Source of the DNA: Escherichia coli
GTDB lineage: Bacteria; Pseudomonadota; Gammaproteobacteria; Enterobacterales; Enterobacteriaceae
DNA: 64,000 nt
Assembly (NCBI RefSeq): GCF_022846255.1
Contig: NZ_AP025682.1
Reading direction: 5' to 3' (one strand)
The stretch's first letter is position 1; each line of letters opens with the position of its first letter. A program made the position numbers and the translations under genes. Below the pieces are notes generated by a model that was given only the letters and a program-made list of their open reading frames with translations, was not told the origin of the DNA and searched no databases. Below, in pieces: positions 760 to 52,615 of the stretch.

Positions 760-760
760 C

Positions 761-973
761 ATGGCGACATTTTCTTTAGGTAAACATCCGCACGTTGAGC
801 TGTGCGACTTGCTGAAACTGGAAGGCTGGAGCGAAAGCGGCGCGCAGGCGAAAATCGCGATAGCAGAAGGCCAGGTGAAAGTCGACGGTGCGGTTGAAAC
901 GCGCAAACGCTGCAAAATCGTCGCCGGTCAGACAGTGAGTTTTGCAGGTCACAGCGTACAGGTTGTTGCCTGA
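761..973 (+). CDS. ybcJ: S4-like RNA-binding protein YbcJ
   Basis: ATG at 761 gives MATFSLGKHPHVELCDLLKLEGW..., 70 aa; the ORF-track upstream extension (707) overlaps folD and is unlikely. Confidence 0.85.
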   Translation: MATFSLGKHPHVELCDLLKLEGWSESGAQAKIAIAEGQVKVDGAVETRKRCKIVAGQTVSFAGHSVQVVA

Positions 974-981
974 TCCCTTTC

Positions 982-1013
982 CCGGCCTGTAACAACAGGC
1001 CGGTTCTCTTTTC
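982..1013 (+). terminator. Rho-independent terminator after folD-ybcJ
   Basis: Inverted repeat ccggcctgt/acaggccgg followed by a T-rich run. Confidence 0.5.
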
Positions 1014-1080
1014 AGACTGTTGCCCTCTACGCCCCGTTCATCCATGCTGATAGCATCGACATTTTGCCGAAGCGACCATC

Positions 1081-1602
1081 ATGCCAACCGTTATTACGCA
1101 CGCCGCCGTTCCCCTTTGCATTGCTTTAGGGTTGGGTTCGAAAGTCATCCCTCCGCGCCTGTTATTTGCCGGAATCATCCTGGCGATGCTGCCCGATGCC
1201 GACGTCTTGTCGTTTAAATTTGGCGTTGCTTACGGCAATGTTTTTGGTCATCGCGGGTTTACCCATTCGCTGGTGTTTGCGTTTGTTGTCCCGCTGTTAT
1301 GTGCGCTGATTGGACGCCGATGGTTCAGGGCTGGGCTGATTCGCTGCTGGCTGTTTTTAACCGTCTCGTTGCTATCGCACAGCTTGCTGGATTCGGTAAC
1401 CACTGGCGGTAAAGGCGTTGGCTGGCTGTGGCCGTGGTCAGATGAACGCTTTTTCGCCCCCTGGCAGGTGATTAAAGTCGCGCCGTTTGCATTGTCTCGT
1501 TACACCACAGCGTACGGGCATCAGGTGATTATTTCTGAATTGATGTGGGTGTGGTTGCCGGGGATGCTACTGATGGGAATGTTGTGGTGGCGCAGACGAT
1601 AA
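1081..1602 (+). CDS. ybcI: Inner-membrane metal-dependent hydrolase family protein YbcI (DUF457)
   Basis: 173 aa hydrophobic ORF at the conserved position between ybcJ and cysS. Confidence 0.9.
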   Translation: MPTVITHAAVPLCIALGLGSKVIPPRLLFAGIILAMLPDADVLSFKFGVAYGNVFGHRGFTHSLVFAFVVPLLCALIGRRWFRAGLIRCWLFLTVSLLSHSLLDSVTTGGKGVGWLWPWSDERFFAPWQVIKVAPFALSRYTTAYGHQVIISELMWVWLPGMLLMGMLWWRRR

Positions 1603-1626
1603 CCGGATGCGAAAACTCGCATCCGG
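1603..1626. terminator. Bidirectional hairpin between convergent ybcI and cysS
   Basis: ccggatgcg-aaaact-cgcatccgg perfect inverted repeat between the two stop codons. Confidence 0.5.
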
Positions 1627-1637
1627 CAATTGCGCAA

Positions 1638-3023
1638 TTACTTACGACGCCAGGTGGTCCCTTGTGGGCCATCTTCCAGCACGATCCCCATCTCGTTAAG
1701 ACGGTCACGCGCCGCATCTGCCGCCGCCCAGTCTTTCGCTTTACGGGCATCCAGACGCTGTTGAATTAACGCTTCAATCTCAGCCACTTCGCTGTCGTCT
1801 GCCTGCGCGCCGCTTTGCAGGAACGCTTCTGGTTCTTGCTCCAGCAGGCCCAATACGGCGGAAAGTTTACGCAGATGAGACGCCATTGCGTTCGCCGCTG
1901 CCATATCTTCTGCTTTCAGACGGTTCACTTCACGGGCCATATCAAACAGCACGGAATAGGCTTCCGGGGTGTTGAAATCGTCGTCCATCGCTTCAATAAA
2001 GCGCGCTTCAAACGCTTCGCCACCGGCAGGCGCAACAGTTTTATCTGTGCCGCGCAGCGCAGTGTAGAGACGCTCCAGCGCCGCACGCGCCTGCTTCAGG
2101 TTCTCTTCGCTGTAGTTCAGCTGGCTGCGATAGTGGCCCGACATCAGGAAGTAACGCACGGTTTCAGCATCGTAGTATTTCAGCACATCGCGCACGGTAA
2201 AGAAGTTACCCAGCGATTTGGACATCTTCTCGCGGTCAACCATCACCATTCCGGAGTGCATCCAGTAGTTCACATACTGACCATCATGGGCACAGGTGGA
2301 CTGCGCGATTTCGTTTTCGTGGTGCGGGAACATCAGGTCAGAACCGCCGCCGTGGATATCAAAGTGGTTACCCAGCTGCTTGCAGTTCATTGCCGAACAT
2401 TCAATGTGCCAGCCAGGACGGCCCGCGCCCCACGGAGACGGCCAGCTCGGTTCGCCCTCTTTCGACATCTTCCACAGAACGAAGTCCATCGGGTTGCGTT
2501 TGTCGTCGACCACGTCAACGCGCGCGCCTGCCTGCAGCTGGTCGAGATCCTGACGCGACAGCACGCCATATGTCGGATCGGTCGGTACGTCAAACATCAC
2601 GTCGCCGTTGTCCGCCACATAAGCGTGACCTTTGGCGATCAGTTGTTCAGTGAGTTCAATAATTTCTGCGATATGGTGCGTCGCGCGCGGCTCCATATCC
2701 GGGCGCAAAATGTTCAACGCATCAAAATCTTTATGCATTTCGGCGATCATGCGATCCACCAGCGCCACAAAGCTTTCGCCATTTTCATTGGCGCGTTTGA
2801 TGATTTTGTCGTCGATATCAGTAATGTTGCGCACATACTTCAGCTTATAGCCGAGGAAACGCAGGTAGCGCGCGACCACGTCAAAGGCAACAAAGGTACG
2901 CCCGTGACCGATATGACAGAGATCGTAAACGGTGATTCCACACACGTACATGCCGACTTCCCCGGCGTGAATAGGCTTAAATTCCTCTTTTTGGCGTGTC
3001 AGAGTATTGAAGATTTTTAGCAT
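1638..3023 (-). CDS. cysS: Cysteine--tRNA ligase
   Basis: 461 aa; class I aaRS HIGH (CHIGHGRT) and KMSKS motifs present in the translation. Confidence 0.97.
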
Positions 3024-3196
3024 CGAAGATTCCGTTTAGACATGTGTGGGTAATTGAGTTGCGTATAATACCCATATTTCCCGCGCGAATCAGCATACAT
3101 TGCGTGATGATCCGATCGTGCGGTTATGCTATAACACCACCCTATATATGACCCGAACCGGGTTGAAGCACCAATCAAACGGAACAGGATGCAAAA

Positions 3197-3691
3197 ATGG
3201 TTACTTTCCACACCAATCACGGCGATATTGTCATCAAAACTTTTGACGATAAAGCACCTGAAACAGTTAAAAACTTCCTGGACTACTGCCGCGAAGGTTT
3301 TTACAACAACACCATTTTCCACCGTGTAATCAACGGCTTTATGATTCAGGGCGGCGGTTTTGAGCCGGGCATGAAACAAAAAACCACCAAAGACCCGATC
3401 AAAAACGAAGCCAATAACGGTCTGAAAAATACCCGTGGTACGCTGGCAATGGCCCGTACTCAGGCACCGCACTCTGCAACTGCACAGTTCTTCATCAACG
3501 TGGTTGATAACGACTTCCTGAACTTCTCTGGCGAAAGCCTGCAAGGTTGGGGTTACTGCGTGTTTGCTGAAGTGGTTGAAGGCATGGACGTGGTAGACAA
3601 AATCAAAGGTGTTGCAACCGGTCGTAGCGGTATGCACCAGGACGTGCCAAAAGAAGACGTTATCATTGAAAGCGTGACCGTTAGCGAGTAA
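3197..3691 (+). CDS. ppiB: Peptidyl-prolyl cis-trans isomerase B (cyclophilin)
   Basis: 164 aa [27 protein letters not shown]... cyclophilin fold. Confidence 0.97.
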
Positions 3692-3693
3692 TC

Positions 3694-4416
3694 GTGGCGA
3701 CACTCTTTATTGCAGATCTTCATCTCTGCGCGGAAGAACCGGCGATCACCGCCGGTTTTCTGCGTTTTTTAGCGGGGGAGGCCCGCAAGGCCGATGCGCT
3801 GTATATTCTTGGCGATCTGTTTGAAGCCTGGATCGGCGACGACGATCCCAACCCGCTCCATCGCCAGATGGCGGCAGCGATCAAAGCGGTGTCCGATTCC
3901 GGCGTTCCCTGTTATTTCATTCATGGCAACCGTGATTTTCTGCTCGGCAAACGCTTTGCCCGTGAAAGCGGCATGACGTTATTGCCGGAAGAAAAGGTGC
4001 TCGAACTTTATGGTCGTCGGGTGTTGATTATGCATGGCGACACGCTGTGCACCGATGACGCGGGTTATCAGGCTTTTCGTGCCAAAGTCCACAAACCCTG
4101 GCTGCAAACGCTATTCCTCGCCCTGCCGTTGTTTGTGCGCAAACGCATTGCCGCGCGAATGCGCGCGAACAGTAAAGAAGCCAACAGCAGTAAATCGCTG
4201 GCGATCATGGACGTTAACCAAAACGCGGTGGTCAGTGCGATGGAAAAACATCAGGTGCAATGGCTGATTCACGGGCATACCCATCGCCCGGCAGTACATG
4301 AACTTATCGCCAATCAGCAACCTGCTTTCCGCGTCGTGCTGGGTGCCTGGCATACGGAAGGTTCAATGGTGAAAGTCACGGCGGATGACGTTGAGCTGAT
4401 TCATTTTCCGTTTTAA
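3694..4416 (+). CDS. lpxH: UDP-2,3-diacylglucosamine pyrophosphohydrolase LpxH
   Basis: 240 aa calcineurin-like phosphoesterase (DLHL, GNRD, GHTH motifs); GTG start 3 nt after the ppiB stop. Confidence 0.93.
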
Positions 4417-4445
4417 ATACCCGCAACTTTGCTGATTTCACAGCC

Positions 4446-4461
4446 ACGCAACCGTTTTCCT
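4446..4461 (+). promoter_or_regulatory. Candidate PurR operator upstream of purEK
   Basis: acgcaaccgttttcct resembles the PurR box consensus (aCGCAAACGTTTtCnT) and lies ~70 nt upstream of the purE start. Confidence 0.5.
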
Positions 4462-4532
4462 TGCTCTCTTTCCGTGCTATTCTCTGTGCCCTCTAAAGCC
4501 GAGAGTTGTGCACCACAGGAGTTTTAAGACGC

Positions 4533-5042
4533 ATGTCTTCCCGCAATAATCCGGCGCGTGTCGCCATCGTGATGGGGTCCAAAAGCGACTGGGCTACCAT
4601 GCAGTTCGCCGCCGAAATCTTCGAAATCCTGAATGTCCCGCACCACGTTGAAGTGGTTTCTGCTCACCGCACCCCCGATAAACTGTTCAGCTTCGCCGAA
4701 AGCGCCGAAGAGAACGGTTATCAGGTGATTATTGCGGGCGCAGGCGGCGCAGCGCACCTGCCTGGCATGATTGCCGCCAAAACGCTGGTGCCGGTGCTGG
4801 GCGTGCCAGTACAGAGCGCCGCACTGAGCGGTGTCGATAGCCTCTACTCCATCGTACAAATGCCGCGCGGCATTCCGGTGGGTACGCTGGCGATTGGTAA
4901 AGCTGGCGCGGCAAACGCGGCGTTACTGGCAGCACAAATTCTTGCGACTCATGATAAAGAACTGCACCAGCGTCTGAATGAATGGCGCAAAGCACAAACT
5001 GATGAAGTGCTGGAAAACCCGGACCCGCGAGGTGCGGCATGA
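4533..5042 (+). CDS. purE: N5-carboxyaminoimidazole ribonucleotide mutase PurE
   Basis: [20 protein letters not shown]...; ATG at 4533 (the ORF-track start at 4506 is an upstream extension). Confidence 0.93.
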
Positions 5043-6106
5043 AACAGGTTTGCGTCCTCGGTAACGGGCAGTTAGGCCGTATGCTGCGTCAGGCAGGCGA
5101 ACCGTTAGGCATTGCTGTCTGGCCAGTCGGGCTGGACGCTGAACCGGCGGCGGTGCCTTTTCAACAAAGCGTGATTACCGCTGAGATAGAACGCTGGCCG
5201 GAAACCGCATTAACCCGCGAGCTGGCGCGCCATCCGGCCTTTGTGAACCGCGATGTGTTCCCGATTATTGCTGACCGTCTGACTCAGAAGCAGCTTTTCG
5301 ATAAGCTCCACCTGCCGACCGCACCGTGGCAGTTACTTTCCGAACACAGCGAGTGGCCTGCGGTGTTTGATCGTTTAGGTGAGCTGGCGATTGTTAAACG
5401 TCGCACTGGTGGCTATGACGGACGCGGTCAATGGCGTTTACGCGCCGATGAAACCGAACAGTTACCGGCTGAATGCTACGGCGAATGTATTGTCGAGCAG
5501 GGCATAAACTTCTCAGGTGAAGTGTCGCTGGTTGGCGCGCGCGGCTTTGATGGCAGCACCGTGTTTTATCCGCTGACGCATAACCTGCATCAGAACGGCA
5601 TTTTGCGCACCAGCGTCGCTTTCCCGCAGGCCAATGCACAGCAACAGGCGCAAGCTGAAGAGATGTTGTCGGCGATTATGCAGGAGCTGAGCTATGTGGG
5701 CGTGATGGCGATGGAGTGTTTTGTCACCCCACAAGGTCTGCTGATCAACGAACTGGCTCCGCGTGTGCATAACAGCGGTCACTGGACGCAAAACGGTGCC
5801 AGCATCAGCCAGTTTGAGCTACATCTGCGGGCAATTACCGATCTGCCGTTACCGCAACCAGTAGTGAATAATCCGTCGGTGATGATCAATCTGATTGGTA
5901 GCGATCTGAATTATGACTGGCTGAAACTGCCGCTTGTGCATCTGCACTGGTACGACAAAGAAGTCCGTCCGGGCCGTAAAGTGGGGCATTTGAATTTGAC
6001 CGACAGCGACACATCGCGTCTGACCGCGACGCTGGAAGCCTTAATCCCACTGCTGCCGCCGGAGTATGCCAGCGGCGTGATGTGGGCGCAGAGCAAGTTC
6101 AGTTAA
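5039..6106 (+). CDS. purK: N5-carboxyaminoimidazole ribonucleotide synthase PurK
   Basis: 355 aa ATP-grasp protein; start overlaps the purE stop (ATGA). Confidence 0.95.
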
Positions 6107-6123: not shown

Positions 6124-6309
6124 GCCGGATGCGGCGTGAACGCCTTATCCGGCCTACCGTTCCAACACCGCCTGTAGGCCTGATAAGATGCGCCAGCATC
6201 GCATCAGGCATGGTGTGCCGATTGCCGCATGCGGCGTGAACGCCTTATCCGGCCTACCGTTCCAACACCGACTGTAGGCCTGATAAGACGCGCCAGCATC
6301 GCATCAGGC
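6124..6309. repeat. REP/BIME cluster; two tandem ~100 bp units
   Basis: gccggatgcggcgtgaacgccttatccggcctac and its inverted partner gtaggcctgataaga...gcatcaggc occur twice in tandem. Confidence 0.8.
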
Positions 6310-14410: not shown

Positions 14411-14452
14411 GTCATACCACTCGCCTGATTATTTTTAGCTATGTTGGATTTT

Positions 14453-14479
14453 GCCACGGTTTATACCGTGGCTTTTTTT
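14453..14479 (+). terminator. Rho-independent terminator of the allDCE operon
   Basis: gccacggt-ttat-accgtggc hairpin followed by TTTTTTT. Confidence 0.55.
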
Positions 14480-14494
14480 GTAGTCAATTCAGGT

Positions 14495-26330: not shown

Positions 26331-27440
<1,110 letters not shown>

Positions 27441-27466
27441 TGGGGGATTCTGTGCACGCTGTTCAT

Positions 27467-27668
27467 GCCGGATGCGGCGTGAACGCCTTATCCAGCCTAC
27501 AGGTGAGTGCTGTTTCGTAGGCATGATAAGACGCGCCTGCGTCGCATCTGGCATCGGCGCACAACTGCCAGATGCGGCGTAAACGCCTTATCCGGCCTAC
27601 ACAATCTTGCAAAATCAATATATTGCTCGATCCTCGTAGGCCTGATAAGCGAAGCGCATCAGGCAATC
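27467..27668. repeat. REP/BIME cluster
   Basis: Several gccggatgcggcgt(g/a)aacgccttatccggcctac-type palindromic units in alternating orientation. Confidence 0.8.
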
Positions 27669-27680
27669 TAACGCCTGTCA

Positions 27681-30095
27681 TCATCCCGCAAACTGCCTGA
27701 ACAGCGCCTTACCCTTAACCAGTCGCGCACCCAGCCAGCCGCCGCAAAGCGACAGCAGCAGCGCACCGCTGCACGGCAGAACAATCCACAATCGCCAGTC
27801 TGGCTCCCACGGGAAATCAAACACTTTCGATTGCAGTACCGCCAGTGCCGTTTCCGCACCAATTGCGGCCACCAGGCCAGAAACAAACCCGATCATGGCG
27901 AACTCACACCACAATGTCGTGCGCAGTAGTTTTTTCCCCGCACCGAGTGTGCGCCACACCACCAGCTCCTGATGACGCTGACGCATTCCCACCTGCACCT
28001 GTGCCAGCAACAGCAACATACCGCAGGCGGTGACCAGCACCACCATCACTTCCAGCGCCCGACTTACCTGCTCCAGCACCTGACCGACCTGTTTTAAAAT
28101 CGCGCCAATGTCTAACAGGCTAATGGTAGGGAACTGGCGGTTGAGTTGCGTCAACATGCCGTTGCCATTCTCCCAGCGGAAACTGGTAAGCCAGCTCTGC
28201 GGTTGCCCGTCTAATGCCCCTTCCGGGAAAATAAAATAGAAATTAGGCCGCAGACTTTCCCAGTCCACTTTGCGCAGGCTGGTCACTTTAGCGCGGAACT
28301 CCTGGGTATCGCCCATAAAGGTGACTGTATCGCCGAGGCCAACGTTTAAGCGTTTCGCCAGCCCCTCTTCCATCGACACTTCATCGGCTTTTGGCGGCCA
28401 GTTACCGGCGACAATCGGATTATGATCGGGCCGCGTATTTTGCCAGGTAAGATTGAGTTCGCGGTTAAGCGCCTCATCTTCATTGCCTTCTGTCGGCTTG
28501 TCGTTAATCGCCGTCAGTCGCGCCCGCACCACCGGATAAAATGATTCCGGGACTATCTGATGTTCCGCGAGGAACGTTTTTAGCGGCGTAACCTGTTCTG
28601 TGGCGATGTTGATTAAAAAGTAGTTCGGGCTTTCTGGCGGTAGCTGCTGTTGCCAGCGGTCGAGCAGATCGCCACGCAATACCAGCAACAGCGCCAGCAG
28701 CATAAAGGAGAGCGAAAATGCCGAAAGCTGGCTTAACGTTGACCACGGCTGACGTAACAGGCGGCTAACCGCCAGGCGCAGAGGTAGCGATTTCAGCGTC
28801 ATGCGGCGAAGTACATTCAGCAGCATCCAGCCCAGCACACCGCACAGCAAAGCCAGTACTACCGCGCCCGCCAGCACCGCCCAGAGCAGCATACTGCCGC
28901 CCATTAATCCGGCGAGCAGCAGCACAACCACCACACTGACAATCGGCAGATAAAACTTCAGCGGCCAGACGTTCGCGACCACATCATTACGCAATACGCG
29001 TAAAGGCTGCGTTGCCAGCAACAAGCGGTACGGTCGTAGCCCCACCAGCAGCGAGATGACCGTCATGGTGCCCAGCGCCCACAGCCACGGCCAGAGGCTG
29101 GCTGGCGGTAGTGCAGCAGGCAGAACGGGCTTGAGCAGCACCATCAACACGTTTTCGAACAACAGGCCTATCGCCCCACCGGTAACGGCTGAAAGCGTCA
29201 GCACCATCAACCACTGACCGACGATTAGCTTACGCAGTTGCGCTCGCCCTGCCCCCAGCGTTTTGAGGATCGCCACCAGATCGTAGCGACTGCGACAGTA
29301 ATGATTCATCGCTACCGCCACCGCTGCCACTGCCAGCAGCAAGGTCAGAAGCGCCGAAAGTAGCAGGAACTGTTGCGAACGTTCCATCGAGCGCCCCAGC
29401 GCGCCTTCGTCCTGTTCCAGACCGTACCAGCGTTGTTCGGGTTTAAGCTGGGGTAACAACCATTTCTCATAGCCGTCGAGCTGGTTCTCGTTGCCGCCGA
29501 ATTTATAGCGCCAGGTGACCCGACTTCCCGGCTGCACGGCTCCGGTTTTATCAACATCCGCCAGATTCATCATCAGGCGTGGGGCTATCTGGAAAGGATT
29601 AAAACCGGAATCCGGTTCCTGAATCACTTCTCCGGCAATCCGCAAGGTGGCATCGCCCACGTCAATGGTGTCGCCCGTTTTCAGGTTAAGCAGTGCCATC
29701 AGGCGTGGGGCCAGCAATACGCTGCCCGCCTGTGGTTTCAGGCCAGGGGGATTGGTTTGCAGATCGCCATACATCGGGTAGATATCATCCACCGCTTTGA
29801 CGTTCGCCAGTTGCGGCGTATCGCCCGCAAAAGTCATCGTGGCGAAAGTCAGCTGCTTGCCGACTTTCAGGCCGCGCTTTTGCGCTTCCTCCAGCCATGC
29901 TTGCGGCACTTCGCGCGAACTGCGCAACGCCCGATCGCCCGCCATAAACTCCCGGCTTTGCTGGCTTAAGCCCTTCTCCATGCGATCGCTGATGTTGCCC
30001 AGCGCCAGCACGCAGGCCACCGCCAGGCTTAGCGCCAGCCAGACAATTAACAGCGACGGCGAGCGCCATTCGCGCCAGAACCAACGTGCAATCAT
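27681..30095 (-). CDS. ybbP: ABC transporter permease (FtsX-like, two permease domains)
   Basis: 804 aa polytopic protein; start overlaps the ybbA stop (ATGA). Confidence 0.9.
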   Translation of the reverse strand: MIARWFWREWRSPSLLIVWLALSLAVACVLALGNISDRMEKGLSQQSREFMAGDRALRSSREVPQAWLEEAQKRGLKVGKQLTFATMTFAGDTPQLANVKAVDDIYPMYGDLQTNPPGLKPQAGSVLLAPRLMALLNLKTGDTIDVGDATLRIAGEVIQEPDSGFNPFQIAPRLMMNLADVDKTGAVQPGSRVTWRYKFGGNENQLDGYEKWLLPQLKPEQRWYGLEQDEGALGRSMERSQQFLLLSALLTLLLAVAAVAVAMNHYCRSRYDLVAILKTLGAGRAQLRKLIVGQWLMVLTLSAVTGGAIGLLFENVLMVLLKPVLPAALPPASLWPWLWALGTMTVISLLVGLRPYRLLLATQPLRVLRNDVVANVWPLKFYLPIVSVVVVLLLAGLMGGSMLLWAVLAGAVVLALLCGVLGWMLLNVLRRMTLKSLPLRLAVSRLLRQPWSTLSQLSAFSLSFMLLALLLVLRGDLLDRWQQQLPPESPNYFLINIATEQVTPLKTFLAEHQIVPESFYPVVRARLTAINDKPTEGNEDEALNRELNLTWQNTRPDHNPIVAGNWPPKADEVSMEEGLAKRLNVGLGDTVTFMGDTQEFRAKVTSLRKVDWESLRPNFYFIFPEGALDGQPQSWLTSFRWENGNGMLTQLNRQFPTISLLDIGAILKQVGQVLEQVSRALEVMVVLVTACGMLLLLAQVQVGMRQRHQELVVWRTLGAGKKLLRTTLWCEFAMIGFVSGLVAAIGAETALAVLQSKVFDFPWEPDWRLWIVLPCSGALLLSLCGGWLGARLVKGKALFRQFAG

Positions 30096-33086: not shown

Positions 33087-33113
33087 TTTTCCGTTGAAAT
33101 GCGATGTGCTGGT

Positions 33114-33262
33114 TTGTAGGCCTGATAAGACGCGCCAGCGTCGCATCAGGCATCCGCACATAGCCGCCGGATGCGGCGTGAACGCCTTATCCGGCCTACC
33201 AAACCGTGCTAATTCAATACATTGCAGGTGCCATGTAGGTCTGATTAGACGCATCAGGCATC
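33114..33262. repeat. REP/BIME cluster
   Basis: gtaggcctgataagacgcgccagcgtcgcatcaggc and gccggatgcggcgtgaacgccttatccggcctac units. Confidence 0.8.
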
Positions 33263-35772: not shown

Positions 35773-36227
35773 TGGAGTTAATGGTCGTTCATCCACATAT
35801 TTTCTGGCTCAGTCTCGGCGGGTTGCTGCTGGCAGCCGAGATGCTGGGCGGAAATGGTTATTTGTTGTGGAGCGGCGTGGCAGCGGTGATTACCGGTCTG
35901 GTGGTCTGGCTGGTGCCGCTGGGTTGGGAGTGGCAAGGGGTGATGTTTGCCATTCTGACACTGCTCGCCGCCTGGTTGTGGTGGAAATGGCTGTCGCGGC
36001 GGGTGCGCGAACAAAAGCACAGCGATAGTCATTTAAACCAGCGCGGGCAGCAGCTGATTGGCCGACGTTTTGTGCTGGAATCTCCGCTGGTCAACGGGCG
36101 CGGTCATATGCGCGTCGGTGACAGTTCATGGCCTGTCAGCGCCAGCGAGGATCTCGGTGCAGGTACGCATGTTGAAGTCATTGCGATAGAAGGGATAACG
36201 CTGATCATCCGTGCGGTCATCGCCTGA
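35769..36227 (+). CDS. ybbJ: NfeD-like membrane protein YbbJ
   Basis: 152 aa; start overlaps the qmcA stop (coupled SPFH/NfeD pair). Confidence 0.9.
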
Positions 36228-36312
36228 TGCGACGCTGACGCGTCTTATCATGCCTACAAAATATGCCCGAATCGTAGGCCAGATAAGGCGCTTGCGCCGC
36301 ATCCGGCATATA
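36222..36312. repeat. REP element pair
   Basis: gcctgatgcgacgctgacgcgtcttatcatgcctac ... gtaggccagataaggcgcttgcgccgcatccggc. Confidence 0.75.
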
Positions 36313-36329
36313 GCCGAGTAGAGGCAAAA

Positions 36330-36692
36330 TTACTCTTCCCGGCCTTTACCCATACTTTTTTGGTCTTCATCCGGATAGTGTTTTTTTAGATATTCCAGGA
36401 CGTTTTTATTGACCTTGTGTTGGGTATACACCCACCCTTTCCAGTAATCAGGTTGGTCCAGGTAAACTTCTGGCGGAATGGTGAAATCAGAAAGCGTTAA
36501 CCATTCGGCTAACAGATCGGGGTTTCGTTTCTGGATCAACTGCAACAGCATGATCAGCGACATGGCAGAGGCAGGAGCCGTACTATCGCCGCTTAAATAC
36601 TTCCACACTGTCGACCGGTTCGAACGAAAAAGGATCGGTAGCAATGCCCGGTCCAGATTCATTTCATTAAAAATCTTCTCAAATTCATTCAT
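36330..36692 (-). CDS. Hypothetical 120-aa protein, possible Cro/C1-like HTH; not recognised as a K-12 gene
   Basis: Clean ORF with caggaaa RBS 7 nt upstream of the ATG; the segment RSTVWKYLSGDSTAPASAMSLIMLLQL resembles an XRE-type recognition helix; divergent from the adhesin gene. Confidence 0.55.
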   Translation of the reverse strand: MNEFEKIFNEMNLDRALLPILFRSNRSTVWKYLSGDSTAPASAMSLIMLLQLIQKRNPDLLAEWLTLSDFTIPPEVYLDQPDYWKGWVYTQHKVNKNVLEYLKKHYPDEDQKSMGKGREE

Positions 36693-37057
36693 TTAAATTT
36701 CCTGCCTGGCGTAAACCTCTTAAAAATTGAGATTTATCAAAGAAACGCATTTTAGCACACATCAGGAACCGCTTCACGTTTAGTCCAGAAACAGAATTTA
36801 TTTCGCTTATCAAAACAAGTCTTTACTCTTTTTTACATTGAAAGAGCACGAAATAATTTCCTTTTTTATTTATATAAGAAACTATTTTTGTTTCTTATTG
36901 GTGGTGTTTACGCTTACACAATACAAAAATGCGCTTTACATCACACAAATGGCGGCGTAGATTTCGATCAAATTGCAACGCAGTTTATTTCTTAAAACAA
37001 TATTATTTGTTTCTTATAGAAACATTAATGCGACTTATTTTGAACAAGAGAAAATGA

Positions 37058-38074
37058 ATGAAAACTGTAAACGTAGCTTTACTGGCACTCATAATTTCAG
37101 CAACATCCAGCCCTGTTGTTTTAGCTGGTGATACCATTGAAGCGGCGGCAACAGAGCTTTCAGCCATTAACTCCGGCATGTCGCAATCGGAGATTGAGCA
37201 GAAGATTACCCGCTTTTTAGAACGCACAGACAACAGCCCCGCTGCGTATACCTATTTGACTGAACATCACTACATCCCTTCTGAAACACCTGATACCACT
37301 CAGACTCCCACTGTCCAGACAGATCCTGACGCAGGACAAAAAACCGTTGCCGCTACAGGTGATGTACAGACAACCGCCCGTTATCAGAGCATGATCAACG
37401 CCCGACAGTCTGCGGTAACTGACGCCCAGCAAACGCAAATTACAGAGCAACAGGCGCAGATCGTAGCCACACAAAAAACGCTCGCCGCGACTGGAGATAC
37501 GCAAAATACCGCGCATTATCAGGAGATGATTAATGCCAGGCTGGCGGCTCAAAATGAGGCTAATCAGCGCACTACCACGGAACAAGGGCAGAAAATGAAT
37601 GCACTGACAACCGATGTGGCAGCACAACAGCAAAAAGAAAGGGCTCAATACGATAAACAAATGCAAAGTCTGGCGCAGAAGTCTGTCCAGGCACATGAAC
37701 AAATTGACAGCCTGTCACAAGACGTAACCCAAACGCATCAGCAGTTAAGCAACACGCAAAAACGAGTAGCGGATAATAGCCAACAGATTACTACGCTCAA
37801 TAACCATTTCAGTTCGCTGAAAAACGAAGTTGAGGACAACCGTAAAGAAGCCAATGCGGGAACTGCATCAGCCATCGCTATCGCCTCACAACCACAGGTG
37901 AAAACCGGTGACGTGATGATGGTGTCAGCGGGAGCGGGAACGTTCAACGGTGAATCTGCGGTGTCTGTAGGAACATCTTTTAATGCCGGAACGCATACGG
38001 TACTTAAAGCAGGTATTTCTGCGGATACACAATCTGATTTCGGTGCGGGTGTCGGCGTGGGATATTCGTTCTAA
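37058..38074 (+). CDS. Short head-less trimeric autotransporter adhesin (type Vc, YadA-like C-terminal anchor)
   Basis: Signal peptide MKTVNVALLALIISATSSPVVLA|GD; Q/T-rich coiled-coil stalk with a 45-aa tandem repeat; C-terminus ...SAVSVGTSFNAGTHTVLKAGISADTQSDFGAGVGVGYSF fits the 4-strand YadA anchor ending in an aromatic residue. Confidence 0.75.
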   Translation: MKTVNVALLALIISATSSPVVLAGDTIEAAATELSAINSGMSQSEIEQKITRFLERTDNSPAAYTYLTEHHYIPSETPDTTQTPTVQTDPDAGQKTVAATGDVQTTARYQSMINARQSAVTDAQQTQITEQQAQIVATQKTLAATGDTQNTAHYQEMINARLAAQNEANQRTTTEQGQKMNALTTDVAAQQQKERAQYDKQMQSLAQKSVQAHEQIDSLSQDVTQTHQQLSNTQKRVADNSQQITTLNNHFSSLKNEVEDNRKEANAGTASAIAIASQPQVKTGDVMMVSAGAGTFNGESAVSVGTSFNAGTHTVLKAGISADTQSDFGAGVGVGYSF

Positions 38075-38127
38075 TTTTAACAGCAATTTCTTATTCGCAA
38101 TTTTCCGCACATTATTTAAGGTTAACA

Positions 38128-38550
38128 ATGATGAATAGCTCCATTAAATCGTTTTCCCTGCTGGCGGTTATATTACTGGCTGGCTGTAGCTCACCCGCTT
38201 CCCGCATCGCAGATTGCCAGGCGCAGGGCGTCAGTCATGACACCTGTTACCTCGCAGAACAGCAGCGTCAGTCGGCTATTTTAAGTGCATCCGAAGCGCA
38301 GGCATTTAAAAATGCAGATGCCGCACAACATGCCCAGGCGGCAAAGAAAGCCATTTATAAAGGATTTGGCATGACCTTTAGAATGAGCAGTAAAAACTTT
38401 GCTTATCTCAATGATTCATTATGTGCAATTGATGAAGACAATAAAGATGCCACTGTTTATCAGTCAGGTCTGTATAACGTCATTGTTTATCACCATACGG
38501 GAAAAGTCGCCTTAATGAAGGAAGGTCAGTTTGTGGGTTATTTAAAATGA
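38128..38550 (+). CDS. Hypothetical lipoprotein (lipobox LLAGC, +2 Ser)
   Basis: MMNSSIKSFSLLAVILLAG|C signal/lipobox; aagg RBS; lies 53 nt downstream of the adhesin gene on the same strand. Confidence 0.65.
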   Translation: MMNSSIKSFSLLAVILLAGCSSPASRIADCQAQGVSHDTCYLAEQQRQSAILSASEAQAFKNADAAQHAQAAKKAIYKGFGMTFRMSSKNFAYLNDSLCAIDEDNKDATVYQSGLYNVIVYHHTGKVALMKEGQFVGYLK

Positions 38551-38750
38551 AGGAGCAAAGGAAAATCCCCCTGACGCATATTATGATTATCGGTGCGTTT
38601 ATTTTTGCCTTCTTGCAAGTGGTGTTATTAGCCTCCCTGGTTCACGCTGTGAATGTTAACAACGAAATCCAGGAAGGCTTATTTCAGTCGGGGCGCATTA
38701 TGGTAGAAAGTTTGCAGCATATTCTTTCGGTGCAAACGGAGATTAACTGA
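38547..38750 (+). CDS. Hypothetical 67-aa single-pass membrane protein
   Basis: Start overlaps the lipoprotein stop (ATGA); one hydrophobic helix IMIIGAFIFAFLQVVLLASLV; stop lies 3 nt from the cueR stop. Confidence 0.5.
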   Translation: MKEQRKIPLTHIMIIGAFIFAFLQVVLLASLVHAVNVNNEIQEGLFQSGRIMVESLQHILSVQTEIN

Positions 38751-38753
38751 TTT

Positions 38754-39161
38754 TCACCCCGCCCGATGATGACAGCAGCCGGAGAGATTTTCGATAATCG
38801 GGCAGTCGGCGCTGTCATCGCCAGGGCAGGCATTCGCCAGCGCCAGTAGCTGGTTGCGCATGGATTGCAGTTCTTCGATATGCCGTTCGATCTCCGCCAC
38901 CTTCTCCAGCGTACGACGTTTGACGTCGGCACTATGACGCTGCGGATCGTTAAACAGATTCACCAGTTCGCCGCTCTCCTCCAGGTTAAAGCCCACCTGG
39001 CGTGCCTGGCGCAGTAAGGTCAGTTCGTTGAGATGCTGCTGCGTGTAGGTGCGATAACCGTTTTCGCTGCGCATCGGCGGCGTCACCAGCCCCTTCTCTT
39101 CATAGAAGCGAATGGCTTTGCTGGTCAGGCCGGTAATTTTTGCTACATCGCTAATGTTCAT
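38754..39161 (-). CDS. cueR: MerR-family Cu(I)-responsive regulator CueR
   Basis: 135 aa with N-terminal MerR HTH and C-terminal metal-binding Cys residues. Confidence 0.95.
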
Positions 39162-41774: not shown

Positions 41775-44279
41775 ATGTCACAAACTATCGACCTGACCCT
41801 GGACGGCCTATCCTGCGGTCACTGCGTTAAACGCGTGAAAGAAAGTCTCGAACAGCGCCCGGATGTTGAACAGGCGGATGTGTCTATCACTGAAGCGCAC
41901 GTTACCGGGACTGCCAGTGCAGAACAGCTGATCGAAACCATCAAACAAGCGGGTTATGACGCATCTGTAAGCCACCCAAAGGCTAAACCGCTGGCGGAGT
42001 CATCAATCCCGTCGGAAGCACTGACAGCGGTTTCTGAGGCGCTTCCGGCAGCGACCGCCGATGACGATGACAGCCAGCAGTTGCTGCTGAGCGGCATGAG
42101 CTGCGCCAGCTGTGTCACCCGCGTACAAAATGCGTTGCAAAGCGTACCGGGCGTCACTCAGGCACGGGTAAACCTGGCGGAGCGTACTGCGCTGGTGATG
42201 GGCAGTGCCTCCCCACAAGATTTAGTGCAGGCGGTGGAAAAAGCGGGCTACGGCGCGGAAGCGATTGAAGATGACGCTAAACGCCGCGAGCGCCAGCAAG
42301 AAACCGCCGTCGCTACGATGAAGCGCTTCCGCTGGCAGGCAATTGTCGCGCTGGCGGTGGGTATCCCGGTGATGGTCTGGGGGATGATCGGCGATAACAT
42401 GATGGTCACCGCTGACAACCGCAGCCTGTGGTTAGTTATCGGCCTGATAACCCTGGCGGTAATGGTTTTCGCCGGCGGGCATTTTTACCGCAGCGCATGG
42501 AAAAGCCTGCTGAACGGTGCGGCGACGATGGATACGCTGGTGGCGCTGGGAACGGGTGTTGCGTGGCTCTATTCGATGAGCGTCAACCTGTGGCCGCAGT
42601 GGTTCCCGATGGAAGCACGGCATCTTTACTATGAAGCCAGTGCGATGATTATCGGTCTGATTAATCTCGGTCATATGCTGGAAGCGCGCGCACGTCAGCG
42701 TTCTTCAAAGGCGCTGGAGAAATTACTCGATTTAACTCCGCCGACGGCGCGCCTGGTTACTGACGAAGGTGAAAAAAGCGTGCCGCTGGCGGAAGTGCAG
42801 CCAGGTATGTTGCTGCGCCTGACGACCGGCGATCGCGTACCGGTAGATGGTGAGATCACCCAGGGCGAAGCGTGGCTGGATGAAGCGATGCTGACGGGCG
42901 AACCTATACCGCAGCAAAAAGGCGAAGGCGATAGCGTCCATGCCGGGACAGTGGTGCAGGACGGTAGCGTGTTGTTTCGCGCCAGTGCGGTTGGCAGCCA
43001 TACTACGCTGTCGCGGATTATTCGTATGGTGCGCCAGGCCCAGAGCAGTAAGCCAGAAATCGGTCAGCTGGCGGATAAAATCTCAGCCGTATTTGTGCCG
43101 GTAGTGGTGGTGATTGCGCTGATCAGTGCGGCAATCTGGTATTTCTTTGGTCCGGCACCGCAGATTGTCTATACCCTGGTGATTGCCACCACGGTGCTAA
43201 TTATTGCCTGTCCGTGTGCGCTGGGGCTGGCGACGCCGATGTCGATTATTTCGGGCGTCGGGCGGGCGGCTGAGTTTGGCGTGCTGGTACGGGACGCCGA
43301 CGCGCTGCAACGCGCCAGTACGCTCGATACCGTAGTGTTCGATAAAACCGGGACGCTGACCGAAGGGAAGCCGCAGGTTGTCGCAGTAAAAACATTTGCT
43401 GATATTGATGAAGCGCAAGCATTGCGTCTGGCGGCGGCGCTGGAGCAAGGTTCCAGCCACCCTCTGGCACGGGCGATCCTCGATAAAGCAGGTGATATGC
43501 AGCTACCGCAGGTCAACGGTTTCCGCACATTGCGCGGGCTGGGCGTGAGCGGTGAAGCTGAAGGTCATGCGTTATTGCTGGGCAATCAGGCGCTGTTAAA
43601 TGACCAACAGGTCGATACCAAAGCAATTGAAGCAGATATTTCAGCTCAGGCATCGCAAGGGGCAACGCCTGTGCTGCTGGCGGTTGACGGGAAAGCGGTA
43701 GCCCTGCTGGCTGTACGCGATCCGTTGCGTAGTGATAGCGTGGCGGCGCTGCAACGCCTGCATAAAGCGGGATATCGCCTGGTGATGCTAACCGGGGATA
43801 ACCCGACCACCGCCAATGCGATCGCTAAAGAAGCAGGGATTGATGAGGTGATAGCCGGCGTGCTGCCGGACGGTAAAGCCGAAGCGATCAAACGTCTGCA
43901 AAGTGAAGGACGTCAGGTAGCAATGGTGGGCGACGGCATTAACGATGCGCCAGCGCTGGCTCAGGCGGATGTCGGTATTGCGATGGGTGGCGGCAGTGAT
44001 GTTGCCATTGAAACCGCGGCGATTACCCTGATGCGCCATAGCCTGATGGGTGTTGCGGATGCGCTCGCAATTTCCCGCGCAACGCTGCGCAACATGAAGC
44101 AGAACCTGCTCGGTGCGTTTATCTACAACAGTATCGGTATTCCGGTCGCCGCCGGTATTTTGTGGCCGTTCACCGGTACGCTGCTTAACCCGGTGGTTGC
44201 CGGAGCGGCAATGGCGCTCTCGTCGATTACCGTAGTGAGTAACGCCAACCGATTGCTGCGGTTTAAACCGAAGGAATGA
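41775..44279 (+). CDS. copA: Cu(I)-exporting P1B-type ATPase
   Basis: 834 aa with two N-terminal GxxCxxC metal-binding domains, CPC, DKTGT and GDGINDAP motifs. Confidence 0.97.
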
Positions 44280-44707
44280 TTGGTATTTACTTAATGCGTT
44301 TGTGAGATCCAGTTCTTGTTGCGCTCCTTTTATGAGTAATGCCATATAAAGTGACTGGCGCAAGGAGCGCGCAGGGGGCGGCCAATCGCCGCCGCCCCCT
44401 GCACCCCCGGGCTCTGGCGAACAAAATCGCCGCTGCGCGGTACCCTCGGCTTATCCCTTGCGGCTACCGGGTCGGGCGCGAGGTAACATCCCTGTAAAAC
44501 GCGCCCTCAGCCCACATCCATGTGGGCTGCCCCGGCCTTCAGGGAACGCCTCGGCGATTTTGACGCCACCAACACCCGTGCAGTCTTTCGTTTCAAAGCA
44601 AAAACAATTTTTCGATCATATTTAAGCTACCACTGAACAAGCCTCATAACTCCATTTGCGCCATCCCTCCCCGCGCGCTAGCATGATATTTCACAAAGGG
44701 AGGTCGT

Positions 44708-45502
44708 ATGGATCTGTTGTACCGGGTAAAAACGCTTTGGGCCGCGCTGCGCGGTAATCATTACACCTGGCCTGCTATCGATATCTCTCTTCCCGGCAAT
44801 CGCCATTTTCATCTGATTGGCAGTATTCATATGGGCAGCCACGATATGGCTCCCCTGCCCACCCGTTTGCTCAAAAAGCTCAAAAACGCCGATGCGCTGA
44901 TCGTCGAGGCGGATGTTTCCACCAGCGATACGCCTTTTGCTAATTTGCCTGCCTGCGAGGCGCTGGAAGAGCGCATTAGCGAGGAGCAATTACAAAACCT
45001 GCAGCACATTAGCCAGGAGATGGGCATTTCTCCGTCGCTCTTTTCTACCCAACCGCTGTGGCAAATCGCGATGGTTCTTCAGGCGACGCAGGCGCAAAAA
45101 CTGGGGCTGCGGGCAGAATACGGTATCGATTACCAGCTATTGCAGGCGGCGAAGCAACAACATAAACCCGTGATTGAACTGGAAGGGGCAGAAAACCAGA
45201 TTGCCATGTTGCTCCAGCTCCCTGACAACGGACTGGCGCTGCTGGACGATACGCTGACCCACTGGCACACCAATGCACGGTTGCTGCAACAAATGATGAG
45301 CTGGTGGCTGAATGCGCCGCCGCAAAATAATGAAATAACGCTGCCTAATACGTTCAGTCAGTCGCTGTACGATGTGCTGATGCATCAGCGAAATCTCGCC
45401 TGGCGGGACAAATTATGCGCCATGCCGCCGGGGCGCTATGTGGTCGCAGTCGGTGCACTACACCTGTATGGAGAAGGGAATTTGCCGCAGATGTTGCGCT
45501 AA
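44708..45502 (+). CDS. ybaP: TraB-family protein YbaP
   Basis: 264 aa MDLLYRVKTLWAALRGNHYTWPAIDISLPGN...; strong RBS aagggagg. Confidence 0.9.
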   Translation: MDLLYRVKTLWAALRGNHYTWPAIDISLPGNRHFHLIGSIHMGSHDMAPLPTRLLKKLKNADALIVEADVSTSDTPFANLPACEALEERISEEQLQNLQHISQEMGISPSLFSTQPLWQIAMVLQATQAQKLGLRAEYGIDYQLLQAAKQQHKPVIELEGAENQIAMLLQLPDNGLALLDDTLTHWHTNARLLQQMMSWWLNAPPQNNEITLPNTFSQSLYDVLMHQRNLAWRDKLCAMPPGRYVVAVGALHLYGEGNLPQMLR

Positions 45503-45584
45503 AAAAATGGCCAATATCGCTATTGGCCCGTCAAAGAGGAATTTCATATTTTTATTATTATGCCGTCACTTTAAGCGACGGTGT
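45501..45584 (-). ncRNA. chiX: ChiX (MicM/SroB) small regulatory RNA
   Basis: Minus-strand sequence acaccgtcgcttaaagtgacgg...ttgacgggccaatagcgatattggccattttttt matches the remembered ChiX sequence, including the terminator hairpin and U-tail, in the ybaP-ybaK spacer. Confidence 0.8.
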
Positions 45585-49550: not shown

Positions 49551-51227
49551 ATGCATCACGCCACCCCGCTTATCACCACCATTGTTGGCGGCCTTGTGCT
49601 CGCCTTTATCCTCGGCATGCTGGCCAATAAACTACGTATTTCTCCTCTGGTGGGATATCTGTTAGCGGGTGTGCTGGCAGGACCATTCACTCCGGGCTTT
49701 GTTGCCGATACCAAGCTTGCGCCGGAACTGGCTGAACTGGGCGTTATTTTGCTGATGTTCGGCGTCGGTTTGCATTTTTCGCTCAAGGATTTGATGGCGG
49801 TAAAGTCCATCGCCATTCCCGGCGCGATCGCCCAGATAGCCGTGGCGACGCTGCTGGGTATGGCGCTCTCCGCCGTGCTGGGCTGGTCGTTAATGACCGG
49901 TATCGTGTTCGGCTTATGTCTTTCCACCGCCAGTACCGTGGTGTTACTGCGCGCACTTGAAGAACGGCAATTAATTGACAGTCAGCGTGGGCAAATCGCC
50001 ATCGGTTGGTTGATTGTGGAAGACCTGGTGATGGTCCTGACGCTGGTATTGCTACCCGCGGTAGCAGGAATGATGGAACAGGGCGATGTGGGCTTTGCCA
50101 CTCTTGCAGTCGATATGGGGATCACCATCGGCAAGGTGATCGCATTTATCGCCATTATGATGCTGGTAGGTCGCCGTCTGGTGCCGTGGATTATGGCACG
50201 CAGCGCAGCAACCGGTTCCCGCGAGCTGTTTACCCTGTCGGTGCTGGCGCTGGCGTTAGGGATTGCCTTTGGTGCGGTAGAGCTGTTTGATGTCTCCTTT
50301 GCACTCGGTGCGTTCTTTGCCGGGATGGTACTGAACGAGTCTGAACTGAGTCACCGTGCCGCCCACGATACGCTGCCATTGCGCGACGCGTTTGCGGTGC
50401 TGTTTTTTGTCTCCGTCGGGATGTTGTTTGATCCGTTAATTCTGATTCAGCAACCGCTGGCAGTGCTGGCGACGCTGGCGATTATTCTGTTTGGTAAGTC
50501 GTTAGCCGCGTTTTTCCTGGTGCGACTGTTTGGTCACTCCCAACGTACGGCATTAACTATCGCCGCCAGCCTGGCGCAAATTGGTGAGTTCGCGTTTATC
50601 CTGGCGGGACTGGGCATGGCGCTGGATCTATTGCCGCAAGCCGGGCAGAACCTGGTACTGGCAGGGGCGATTTTGTCGATTATGCTCAACCCGGTCCTGT
50701 TTGCGCTGCTGGAGAAATATCTGGCGAAGACCGAAACGCTGGAAGAGCAGACGCTGGAAGAGGCTATCGAAGAAGAGAAGCAGATCCCAGTGGATATTTG
50801 CAACCATGCGCTACTGGTAGGTTACGGTCGTGTAGGCAGCCTGCTGGGGGAGAAATTGCTCGCCTCTGATATTCCGCTGGTGGTGATTGAGACGTCACGA
50901 ACCCGTGTTGATGAACTGCGAGAGCGCGGGGTCCGCGCAGTATTGGGCAATGCGGCGAACGAAGAAATTATGCAACTGGCGCATCTGGAATGTGCTAAAT
51001 GGCTGATCCTGACGATTCCCAACGGTTATGAAGCGGGCGAGATTGTGGCATCTGCCCGCGCGAAAAATCCGGATATTGAGATTATCGCCCGCGCCCATTA
51101 TGACGATGAAGTGGCGTATATCACCGAACGTGGTGCAAATCAGGTAGTGATGGGTGAGCGTGAAATTGCCCGTACTATGCTGGAACTGCTGGAAACGCCA
51201 CCGGCGGGTGAGGTGGTGACGAGGTAA
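49551..51227 (+). CDS. ybaL: CPA2-family cation/proton antiporter with C-terminal RCK/TrkA-N domain
   Basis: 558 aa; N-terminal Na+/H+ exchanger membrane domain and C-terminal NAD-binding-like domain (VGYGRVG). Confidence 0.92.
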   Translation: MHHATPLITTIVGGLVLAFILGMLANKLRISPLVGYLLAGVLAGPFTPGFVADTKLAPELAELGVILLMFGVGLHFSLKDLMAVKSIAIPGAIAQIAVATLLGMALSAVLGWSLMTGIVFGLCLSTASTVVLLRALEERQLIDSQRGQIAIGWLIVEDLVMVLTLVLLPAVAGMMEQGDVGFATLAVDMGITIGKVIAFIAIMMLVGRRLVPWIMARSAATGSRELFTLSVLALALGIAFGAVELFDVSFALGAFFAGMVLNESELSHRAAHDTLPLRDAFAVLFFVSVGMLFDPLILIQQPLAVLATLAIILFGKSLAAFFLVRLFGHSQRTALTIAASLAQIGEFAFILAGLGMALDLLPQAGQNLVLAGAILSIMLNPVLFALLEKYLAKTETLEEQTLEEAIEEEKQIPVDICNHALLVGYGRVGSLLGEKLLASDIPLVVIETSRTRVDELRERGVRAVLGNAANEEIMQLAHLECAKWLILTIPNGYEAGEIVASARAKNPDIEIIARAHYDDEVAYITERGANQVVMGEREIARTMLELLETPPAGEVVTR

Positions 51228-51242
51228 AACATTGATTCCATT

Positions 51243-51278
51243 GCCGGATGCGATGCTGACGCATCTTATCCGGCCTAC
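51243..51278. repeat. REP element
   Basis: gccggatgcgatgctgacgcatcttatccggcctac palindromic unit. Confidence 0.7.
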
Positions 51279-51310
51279 GGATGCCATCGTCGTCCGGCCT
51301 GGTCGATAAC

Positions 51311-52615
51311 TTAACGATCCCAGTAAGACTCTTCCAGGCTGTCTTCACGCTCCGGCAAGCCGCGCGTTAAACGAGGTGAATGCTGGTTCAGTACCTGATA
51401 GCTCACACGGTTAGCATATTTACACACCTGCGCTAACGATGAATAAGTTAACCAGGTGAATTTATGTTTGCTGGAGTTTGGTACGTTGCTACGGTGGTAG
51501 CTGTTGGCGGTAATGTCATGCAGCAACGCTGCCAGTGCGCCATCCCCTGCTCCATTAGTGTTCATGATTTTTTCCGGCCCGCCCATGTACGGCGCAATGT
51601 GCGAATAGACACGCAGCGGATTCTGGCAATCCTTGTGGCGCATGGCGCGGCTAAACTCATACTGGTTAAATTCCGCTATAGCACCCGGCAGCAGCGGATG
51701 CTGGGTTTTACGTTTCGCTTCGTCTTCGGTAAAGCCTGCCATATACAAGCCGATTGGCCCGGCGGTGCACAGCACCAGATCTACCCAGTCCAGCGCCTTG
51801 TCAGATGCCAACAACGGATCGCTTTCTCCGGTCAACGCTTCGGCTTCATCTTCGTTCATCGCAAGGATAGAGACGTGGTCTTTGAGGAATTGCTGCCACC
51901 ACTGCGGATTCTCGGCAATGACAAACTTGGTGCCCAGCGTCAGCACCACCGGTACGTTATATTTCTTCGCGTACTCAATGGCTTTCATGGTTGCTTCCGG
52001 CATGGGTTCACCCGGCTTGCAACGCACCAGATAAGAGGTGAGAACCAGTGCCGAGGCTCCGGCAATCACATCTTCCGGAATACTTTCAGCCCGCAGCTGG
52101 TTCATGTGGCCGGGGCTGATAGCAAAGGTACGTTCCCCGGACTCGCCAATCAGCGTAAAGCAACGACCAATTGGGCCATCCACGCCTTGTAGATAGTTAA
52201 GATCGGTACGGCTGGAGGTGTTACACAGGTAACGATAGGCATAGCTGCCAATTTCAATATTGCTGCACATGACGCCCAGCAGCACCGAACGGTCGTCCGC
52301 GAGCACCGAGTAGTTGTGCATGGTGTTACCAATGGTGCCACCCGCAAACTGATGGGTAATCAGGTTTTTCTGTTTTAGTTCCTGATAAAGCGCTTCGGCA
52401 ACGTCATCCTCAATCACCAATGAATGCCCGGCGCTTAATCCATAACGCTCAATGAATTCATCATCCACTTTCGCTTCAATATCGACCAGCGTTTGATCGA
52501 TACCCACTACCCAGGCGGCGCTGGTTTCGTTTTCTGGCTGGAATTGCTGAAGCAGCGGATCGCGTGCATTTACGGGGAAGTAATGTTTGGATTTACGTTT
52601 ACCGGGAAATTTCAT
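51311..52615 (-). CDS. gsk: Inosine-guanosine kinase
   Basis: 434 aa PfkB-family kinase. Confidence 0.95.
   Translation of the reverse strand: MKFPGKRKSKHYFPVNARDPLLQQFQPENETSAAWVVGIDQTLVDIEAKVDDEFIERYGLSAGHSLVIEDDVAEALYQELKQKNLITHQFAGGTIGNTMHNYSVLADDRSVLLGVMCSNIEIGSYAYRYLCNTSSRTDLNYLQGVDGPIGRCFTLIGESGERTFAISPGHMNQLRAESIPEDVIAGASALVLTSYLVRCKPGEPMPEATMKAIEYAKKYNVPVVLTLGTKFVIAENPQWWQQFLKDHVSILAMNEDEAEALTGESDPLLASDKALDWVDLVLCTAGPIGLYMAGFTEDEAKRKTQHPLLPGAIAEFNQYEFSRAMRHKDCQNPLRVYSHIAPYMGGPEKIMNTNGAGDGALAALLHDITANSYHRSNVPNSSKHKFTWLTYSSLAQVCKYANRVSYQVLNQHSPRLTRGLPEREDSLEESYWDR

Follow-up and report, generated by a model that had tools for sequence, protein, structure and literature searches.

The gap between mnmH and ybbP raises the question of what stands at this site in an E. 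coli strain that lacks the rhsD toxin element of K-12, and whether the short junction is an old arrangement or the trace of a loss. The initial annotation had stated that in K-12 the stretch between ybbP and selU holds rhsD with its associated ORFs, and had suggested that a cluster of REP palindromes may mark the ancestral empty site. We followed up these claims in the window, by which we mean the whole 64,000-nucleotide stretch of E. coli DNA that was analysed. The gap very probably represents the rhs-free form of the stretch between the convergent genes mnmH and ybbP, filled by a chimeric BIME in which a BIME-2 unit (y–S–z2) is joined to a BIME-1 unit (y–L–z1) with an IHF-consensus linker.

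Anatomy of the mnmH–ybbP gap

The gene for tRNA 2-selenouridine synthase, known as mnmH, selU or ybbB and named mnmH in the annotation of all matching E. coli records, lies on the plus strand at 26346..27440, matches NCBIfam NF008749 over its full length (751 bits) and ends in a TGA stop codon at 27438-27440. The gene for the putative ABC transporter permease YbbP lies on the minus strand at 27681..30095, also with a full-length match (NCBIfam NF041854, 1461 bits), and its stop codon is at 27681-27683, read as TCA on the plus strand. In the window, allS lies upstream of mnmH, and ybbA and tesA lie beyond ybbP. The pair is convergent, and the distance first put at about 240 bp is exactly 240 bp, from 27441 to 27680.

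Within the gap are four REP palindromes in the order y–z2–y–L–z1. The types y, z1 and z2 were assigned with the consensus sequences of the family together with the definitions in PMC3333891. The sequence begins with a 26-nt spacer between the mnmH stop codon and the first REP (27441..27466), which does not hold the segment of about 95 nt, a hairpin and a T-run (AAAAAAACCGACATGACAGTCGGTTT), seen in the other Escherichia alleles compared with it (loci L004, L006 and L003). REP 1 (27467..27500, plus strand) is of the y type (GCCGGATGCGGCGTGAACGCCTTATCCAGCCTAC) with one stem substitution. It is followed by an S-type short linker of 16 nt (27501..27516), which lies between the CTAC and GTAG feet of REP 1 and REP 2. 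REP 2 (27517..27553, minus strand) is an inverted z2 REP (reverse complement TGCCAGATGCGACGCAGGCGCGTCTTATCATGCCTAC), and, like REP 1 and REP 4, it was recognised from the sequence, the repeat finder and the foot motif. REP 3 (27567..27600, plus strand; repeat finder and foot motif) is again of the y type (GCCAGATGCGGCGTAAACGCCTTATCCGGCCTAC) and is 92% identical to REP 1. Its distance of 100 nt downstream from REP 1 equals the period of BIME-2. REP 1 and REP 2 each have a substitution in the foot, and given these they may be decaying copies.

The L linker of the BIME-1 unit takes up the next 35 nt (27601..27635). At 27613-27625 it holds AATCAATATATTG, which fits the IHF consensus (WATCAANNNNTTR), and TCAATATATTG is invariant in the L linker of five aligned Escherichia sequences, while the adjoining linker bases vary. 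The Rfam model ES036 scores below its threshold at 27601-27643 (32.6 against 37.6 bits). REP 4 (27636..27665, minus strand) is an inverted z1 REP (reverse complement TGCCTGATGCGCTTCGCTTATCAGGCCTAC) and starts, on the ybbP mRNA, 15-16 nt past the ybbP stop codon. The repeat finder recovers the REPs as the direct pairs D1 and D3 and the inverted pairs I3 and I4. The gap had been described as almost entirely REP, which holds if the linkers are counted, with the BIME span of 27467-27665 covering 199 of 240 nt (83%), and fails for the REPs alone, which make up 135 nt (56%).

Several lines of evidence were used to decide whether these are genuine REPs. A REP is defined as an imperfect palindrome of 30-40 nt with a conserved GTAG foot, or CTAC on the complement (PMC3333891). 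The four copies here are 30-37 nt long, end in CCTAC or start with GTAGG, and all lie between the two stop codons. With up to 2 mismatches allowed over the whole window, the foot motif CTTATCMGGCCTAC was found 16 times against 0.37 expected, four of them in the gap, and the junction used as a query has, as a median, at least 32-39 matches in each E. coli genome. Both strands fold into structures far more stable than shuffled sequence (z = -5.75 and -7.40), and the head-to-head z2/y pair at 27520..27597 on the minus strand matches naRNA4 (RF02564), an Rfam family of RNAs derived from REPs, with a covariance score of 70.0 bits, above the gathering score of 59.5. The excess of foot motifs, the folding scores and the naRNA4 score together indicate a real structured repeat and not a chance pattern. 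The naRNA4 model also matches two other BIME-2 units in the window (6177-6254 and 33119-33196), and since three such pairs match, the hit is generic for z2/y pairs.

REP325 is a specific multi-copy locus of K-12 whose transcripts have been studied with the protein HU. The gap resembles naRNA4/REP325 (RF02564) in its head-to-head z2/y pair, which scores above gathering; it differs from REP325 in having a single unit.

The two halves of the cluster correspond to the two BIME families. In a BIME-2, y and z2 REPs are joined by a short linker, and the tandem number varies between strains (PMC3333891). Positions 27467-27566 form one such 100-nt unit; the window and FDAARGOS_1284 have a single copy of it, WB61 and YA-1 two. 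Positions 27567-27665 form a BIME-1, with a y REP, the 35-nt linker and a z1 REP; binding of IHF is predicted for this linker, and the L linker of BIME-1 often has an IHF site (PMC3333891). Units fused in this way are called chimeric or "atypical" BIMEs in the nomenclature (PMC3333891). The cluster is like the BIMEs of Bachellier and Gilson (Ton-Hoang et al. 2012, PMC3333891) in its feet, in the IHF-consensus linker of y–L–z1 and in the 100-nt period of y–S–z2. It shows no structural difference from known BIMEs and adds one more locus to them, with its two units fused.

Other REP clusters were seen in the window. Between cnoX and fetB, at 33098-33249, there is a y REP, a z2 REP and a third, degenerate REP, with a naRNA4 score of 82.6 bits; K-12 has only about 36 bp there, with a different small hairpin, which makes this another REP presence/absence difference. 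A four-REP cluster at 6144-6287 (naRNA4, 75.6 bits) borders on the left the genes for allantoin and glyoxylate utilisation, a cluster that runs over 6107-26265, from allS to about 6.1 kb. Apart from REPs, Rfam models above their gathering scores were STnc480 (14417-14483), sroB (45501-45584) and the dnaX frameshift element (59219-59283), all on the minus strand.

The Rhs element and the age of the rhs-free allele

The gene order given for K-12 in the initial annotation proved correct. The mnmH–ybbP interval of MG1655 is 7,301 bp long, against 240 bp in the window, and the order there is allS, mnmH, ylbG', small hypothetical genes, an Rhs core fragment, ybbC, rhsD, a 430-bp stretch with 28% G+C, and ybbP. 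At the left end of this island, ylbG' is truncated and resembles an HTH transposase gene (PF13551). Homology between K-12 and the window stops about 9 nt beyond the mnmH stop codon and, on the other side, about 3 nt beyond that of ybbP, so the suggestion that this strain is not K-12-like at the junction was borne out to within about 10 nt of each stop codon. O157 has borders identical to those of K-12, with a shorter interior and an Rhs element present.

An Rhs element was taken to consist of an Rhs core ORF (YD-repeat/PAAR, about 1,400 aa), a C-terminal tip and an immunity gene. A tblastn search of the whole window with K-12 RhsD gave nothing below E = 0.18, a blastn search of it with the 7.3-kb K-12 interval gave no match, and the longest ORF in the window has 834 aa. 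In the other direction, no REP foot motif was found within the K-12 interval or at either of its borders. Because homology ends at the stop codons and the K-12 interval is free of REPs, the alignment indicates that the rhsD element occupies the whole gap and replaced it together with the REP cluster, without inserting beside the REPs.

That the site is a variable Rhs locus, as had been supposed, is on record. Jackson et al. 2009 (PMC2935791) list it in Table 3 as Rhs locus 3, ybbA..ybbB, and map the presence and absence of rhs genes on a strain tree with E. albertii, which lacks locus 3, as the outgroup. They place the gain at position 3 late, after the split from the rhs-poor pathogenic strains and by duplication of position 6, and they also describe widespread loss of rhs genes among E. 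coli strains. Table 6 of Archer et al. 2011 (PMC3032704) scores rhsD as a gene that W, K-12 and B have and that Crooks lacks. Our locus agrees with these papers in its site, in the late gain of rhsD and in the lack of rhsD in E. albertii and in some E. coli strains; where the two papers treat the locus, they give presence and absence only, with no description of the empty-site sequence, its REP content or a DinQ-like allele. A search for a link of BIMEs or REPs with the origin of the rhsD site found none among the papers covered.

Outgroups were scanned with an MnmH search of one genome per species, and YbbP was then located in the resulting loci. The convergent mnmH/ybbP pairing is kept in Escherichia, Citrobacter, Kosakonia, Kluyvera, Buttiauxella and others. 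In E. albertii NBRC 107761 the gap is 248 bp long, and its y–z2–y–L–z1 array lines up in register with that of the window, position for position. Locus L004 (NZ_JAATUR010000024.1) has the hairpin and T-run segment of about 95 nt and then y–L–z1 only, and Escherichia sp. E1V33 (L006) has a gap with a DinQ-like cassette. The y–L–z1 unit beside ybbP is thus common to all rhs-free Escherichia examined, and the full four-REP set is shared with E. albertii. Because E. albertii shares the four-REP junction in register, the REP-filled rhs-free allele appears to predate E. coli and to be older than the rhsD element, which upholds, within the genus Escherichia, the idea that the REP cluster marks an older empty site. 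The rhs-free arrangement of L004 differs from the window in the left half of the gap, and this makes the window's sequence there no more than a candidate for the exact ancestral one.

L004 is labelled E. coli SCPM-O-B-8794. Its flanks are only 92-95% identical to the window and it stands as its own species in the one-per-species collection; for these two reasons the label is probably a misnomer for a cryptic-clade Escherichia.

Gap content differs by genus. In Citrobacter and Kosakonia (L009-L013, L016, L020, L022, L024, L026) the gap holds a conserved four-gene block of 4.1-4.4 kb that resembles a MetNIQ ABC transporter, with a MetN-like ATPase carrying an NIL domain, an NlpA-type lipoprotein and a permease; the 377-aa protein of the block had no Pfam match. 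In several Buttiauxella the gap is only 65-74 bp long. As judged from these loci, the "empty" state appears ancestral for Escherichia and, given the four-gene block in Citrobacter and Kosakonia, not necessarily for the family. In a separate difference, the allantoin cluster is missing in E. albertii and in two other non-coli Escherichia loci, and the match to window positions 1-6106 lies there directly upstream of mnmH.

The history of the strain itself has to be kept apart from the history of the allele. Compared with the nearest complete genome, the window is 92% to 100% identical per kb. Identity is locally low across the 3' end of mnmH and ybbP (27000-30000, 96%) and around 51000-52000 (92%), with neighbouring kilobases at 99-100%, and the best match to the mnmH-3'/ybbP segment among complete E. 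coli genomes is at most 97.7%. This pattern is that of a recombination mosaic. An origin from an Escherichia other than E. coli was considered for the window and rejected, on the mosaic pattern and on copA, which matches complete E. coli genomes at 99.7%.

Downstream of copA, at 44278-44635, the window is without ybaQ, a gene for a HigA-like antitoxin that is present there in K-12 and FDAARGOS_1284. Its place is taken by about 270 nt of GC-rich DNA (roughly 44314-44584). This DNA is a dispersed repeat that has no annotation and a median copy number of 3 in E. coli genomes, and it lies at the copA site in only 351 of them.

Given the mosaic, the age of the allele does not prove that this lineage never carried rhsD, and the strongest rival account holds that its ancestors had rhsD as K-12 does and later deleted it down to the short junction. 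This seems unlikely to us, even though the mosaic and the widespread rhs loss reported by Jackson et al. (PMC2935791) both speak for it. The K-12-type and O157-type intervals have no REP, so a deletion could not regenerate the four-REP cluster, and the cluster in the window is co-linear with that of E. albertii. Secondary loss could have occurred only by the import of an rhs-free allele through recombination, and the allele itself would still be old. We therefore keep to the reading of the gap as an old rhs-free allele.

Distribution of alleles and other cargo

A total of 5,426 complete E. coli genomes were used to estimate how common the arrangement is. In 1,911 of them mnmH and ybbP are adjacent, which again shows the variability of the locus. 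A 70-nt probe that runs from the mnmH stop codon across the 26-nt spacer into the beginning of REP 1, with coverage of at least 80% required, found the direct junction of the window type in 584 of the 1,911, in 427 of these at an identity of at least 99%. A probe from the cassette allele found the DinQ-like cassette in the other 1,327, which are 24% of the complete genomes, and together the two classes account for exactly the 1,911. The genes are not adjacent in about 3,515 genomes (65%), a group in which K-12 and O157 were the only ones examined, both with an Rhs element. The junction of the window is the least common of the three states, though far from rare, and of the two alleles without rhs it has the lower count (584 against 1,327).

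The DinQ-like cassette, of the type I toxin class, is about 560 bp long and was delimited in E. coli YA-1 (L003, 2596-3165) and Escherichia sp. E1V33 (L006, 3232-3800), where it sits to the left of intact REPs. Its product is a 27-aa hydrophobic peptide (MKTFLDKVLIVLKALIALLELIRQFIE) annotated as DinQ in RefSeq. Two copies of CAGTCCTCATCTAGC lie upstream of the peptide gene, and a duplicated hairpin (AAAAAAACCGACATGACAGTYGGTTT) bounds the cassette. It is a diverged paralogue of the dinQ locus of K-12, which lies between gor and arsR, with 70% identity over 218 nt. A DinQ search of the window was negative, with neither the 27-aa peptide gene nor the repeated antisense-like segments upstream of it, and none of the papers covered by the literature search links dinQ with ybbP, mnmH or selU.

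A different island was seen in E. whittamii Sa2BVA5 (L005, 1071-4654). It is 3.6 kb long and encodes a 666-aa fusion of Hcp with a Tle1-like phospholipase (PF05638 and PF09994), together with two DUF2931 genes, which are taken as putative immunity genes. It ends within a few bases of both stop codons, the last mnmH codons are altered, and no REP is left in the gap. Another locus of the window with different genes in other strains is the spot between ybbJ and cueR, where a 2.5-kb segment absent from K-12 (36218-38754) contains a 338-aa ORF with a YadA-type membrane anchor (37058-38074, PF03895) and a REP pair at its left edge (36244-36287).

Escherichia thus has at least four mutually exclusive alleles at the mnmH–ybbP gap: BIME only, DinQ-like cassette with BIME, RhsD element, and Hcp–Tle1 fusion with two DUF2931 genes. 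It is conceivable, though we would call it doubtful, that the gap is a genus-wide swap site for toxin cargo.

A second rival account makes the REP cluster an integration target, with Rhs elements or islands, or an associated IS or RAYT, recognising REP/BIME DNA. Three unrelated cargoes in this gap within Escherichia, the transposase-like ylbG' (PF13551) at the left end of the K-12 island, and the specific insertion of several IS elements into REPs, described in the introduction of PMC3333891 and named in the title of PMC1525189, all fit such a role. A targeted insertion is nonetheless very unlikely here, as no REP halves lie beside the K-12 or E. whittamii islands, both of which take up nearly all the sequence between the two stop codons, and the DinQ-like cassette is bounded by its duplicated hairpin and not by REP sequence.

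Finally, that the gap encodes a product other than REPs, either a small protein, as the overlapping ORFs of 73-83 codons (27463-27684 and 27327-27554 on the minus strand, 27331-27582 on the plus strand) and a RefSeq 53-aa hypothetical protein within the REPs of WB61 could suggest, or a dedicated sRNA such as naRNA4, whose match exceeds the gathering score, is highly improbable, since the ORFs consist of REP sequence and alter with BIME copy number, the promoter scan found no sigma-70-like promoter in the gap, and the naRNA4 model matches every z2/y pair in the window and so recognises the repeat and not a specific gene.

Proposed roles and meaning of the rhs-free allele

With the gap read as an rhs-free allele filled by a chimeric BIME, its possible functions can be proposed by analogy with the REP and BIME roles listed in PMC3333891. 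The REPs would form stable hairpins at the ends of both transcripts, that of mnmH and that of ybbA-ybbP, where they may shield the mRNA 3' ends from exonucleases and damp read-through. This role would matter in the gap because no intrinsic terminator is present, a scan of 27300-27800 having found none on either strand. The L linker may serve as an IHF-binding site. DNA gyrase is known to bind and cleave the BIME-2 family in vivo (references in PMC3333891; see also PMC6379681), and the y/z2 pair could act as a gyrase target that absorbs positive supercoils between the convergent genes. The number of BIME-2 units would shift by slippage, recombination or RAYT activity. The BIME-only, DinQ-like plus BIME, and Rhs alleles would most simply pass from strain to strain when the conserved genes on either side undergo homologous recombination.

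In work attributed to Liang et al. in 2015, REPs that lie no more than about 15 nt from a stop codon are said to lower translation through ribosome stalling and tmRNA. At 15-16 nt past the ybbP stop codon, REP 4 is a borderline case for this rule, and no weight is placed on it here.

The polymorphism and polarity of the rhsD site are already published, and the rhs-free version is known, common and apparently older, which makes the finding correct but ordinary. It brings no new biology on REPs or Rhs elements and its practical value is limited. What it adds is a sequence for the rhs-free allele, recorded only as "absent" where the two papers treat the locus, and the placement of this strain outside the Rhs repertoire of the K-12/B/W/O157 type at the rhsD locus. 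If the swapping of cargo reflected recombinational exchange under balancing selection or a targeted mechanism, the BIME-only allele would be more than an empty site, namely one of the states of a polymorphism that is being maintained. The displacement by Rhs of an older BIME cluster that is shared with E. albertii supports the published late gain of rhsD.
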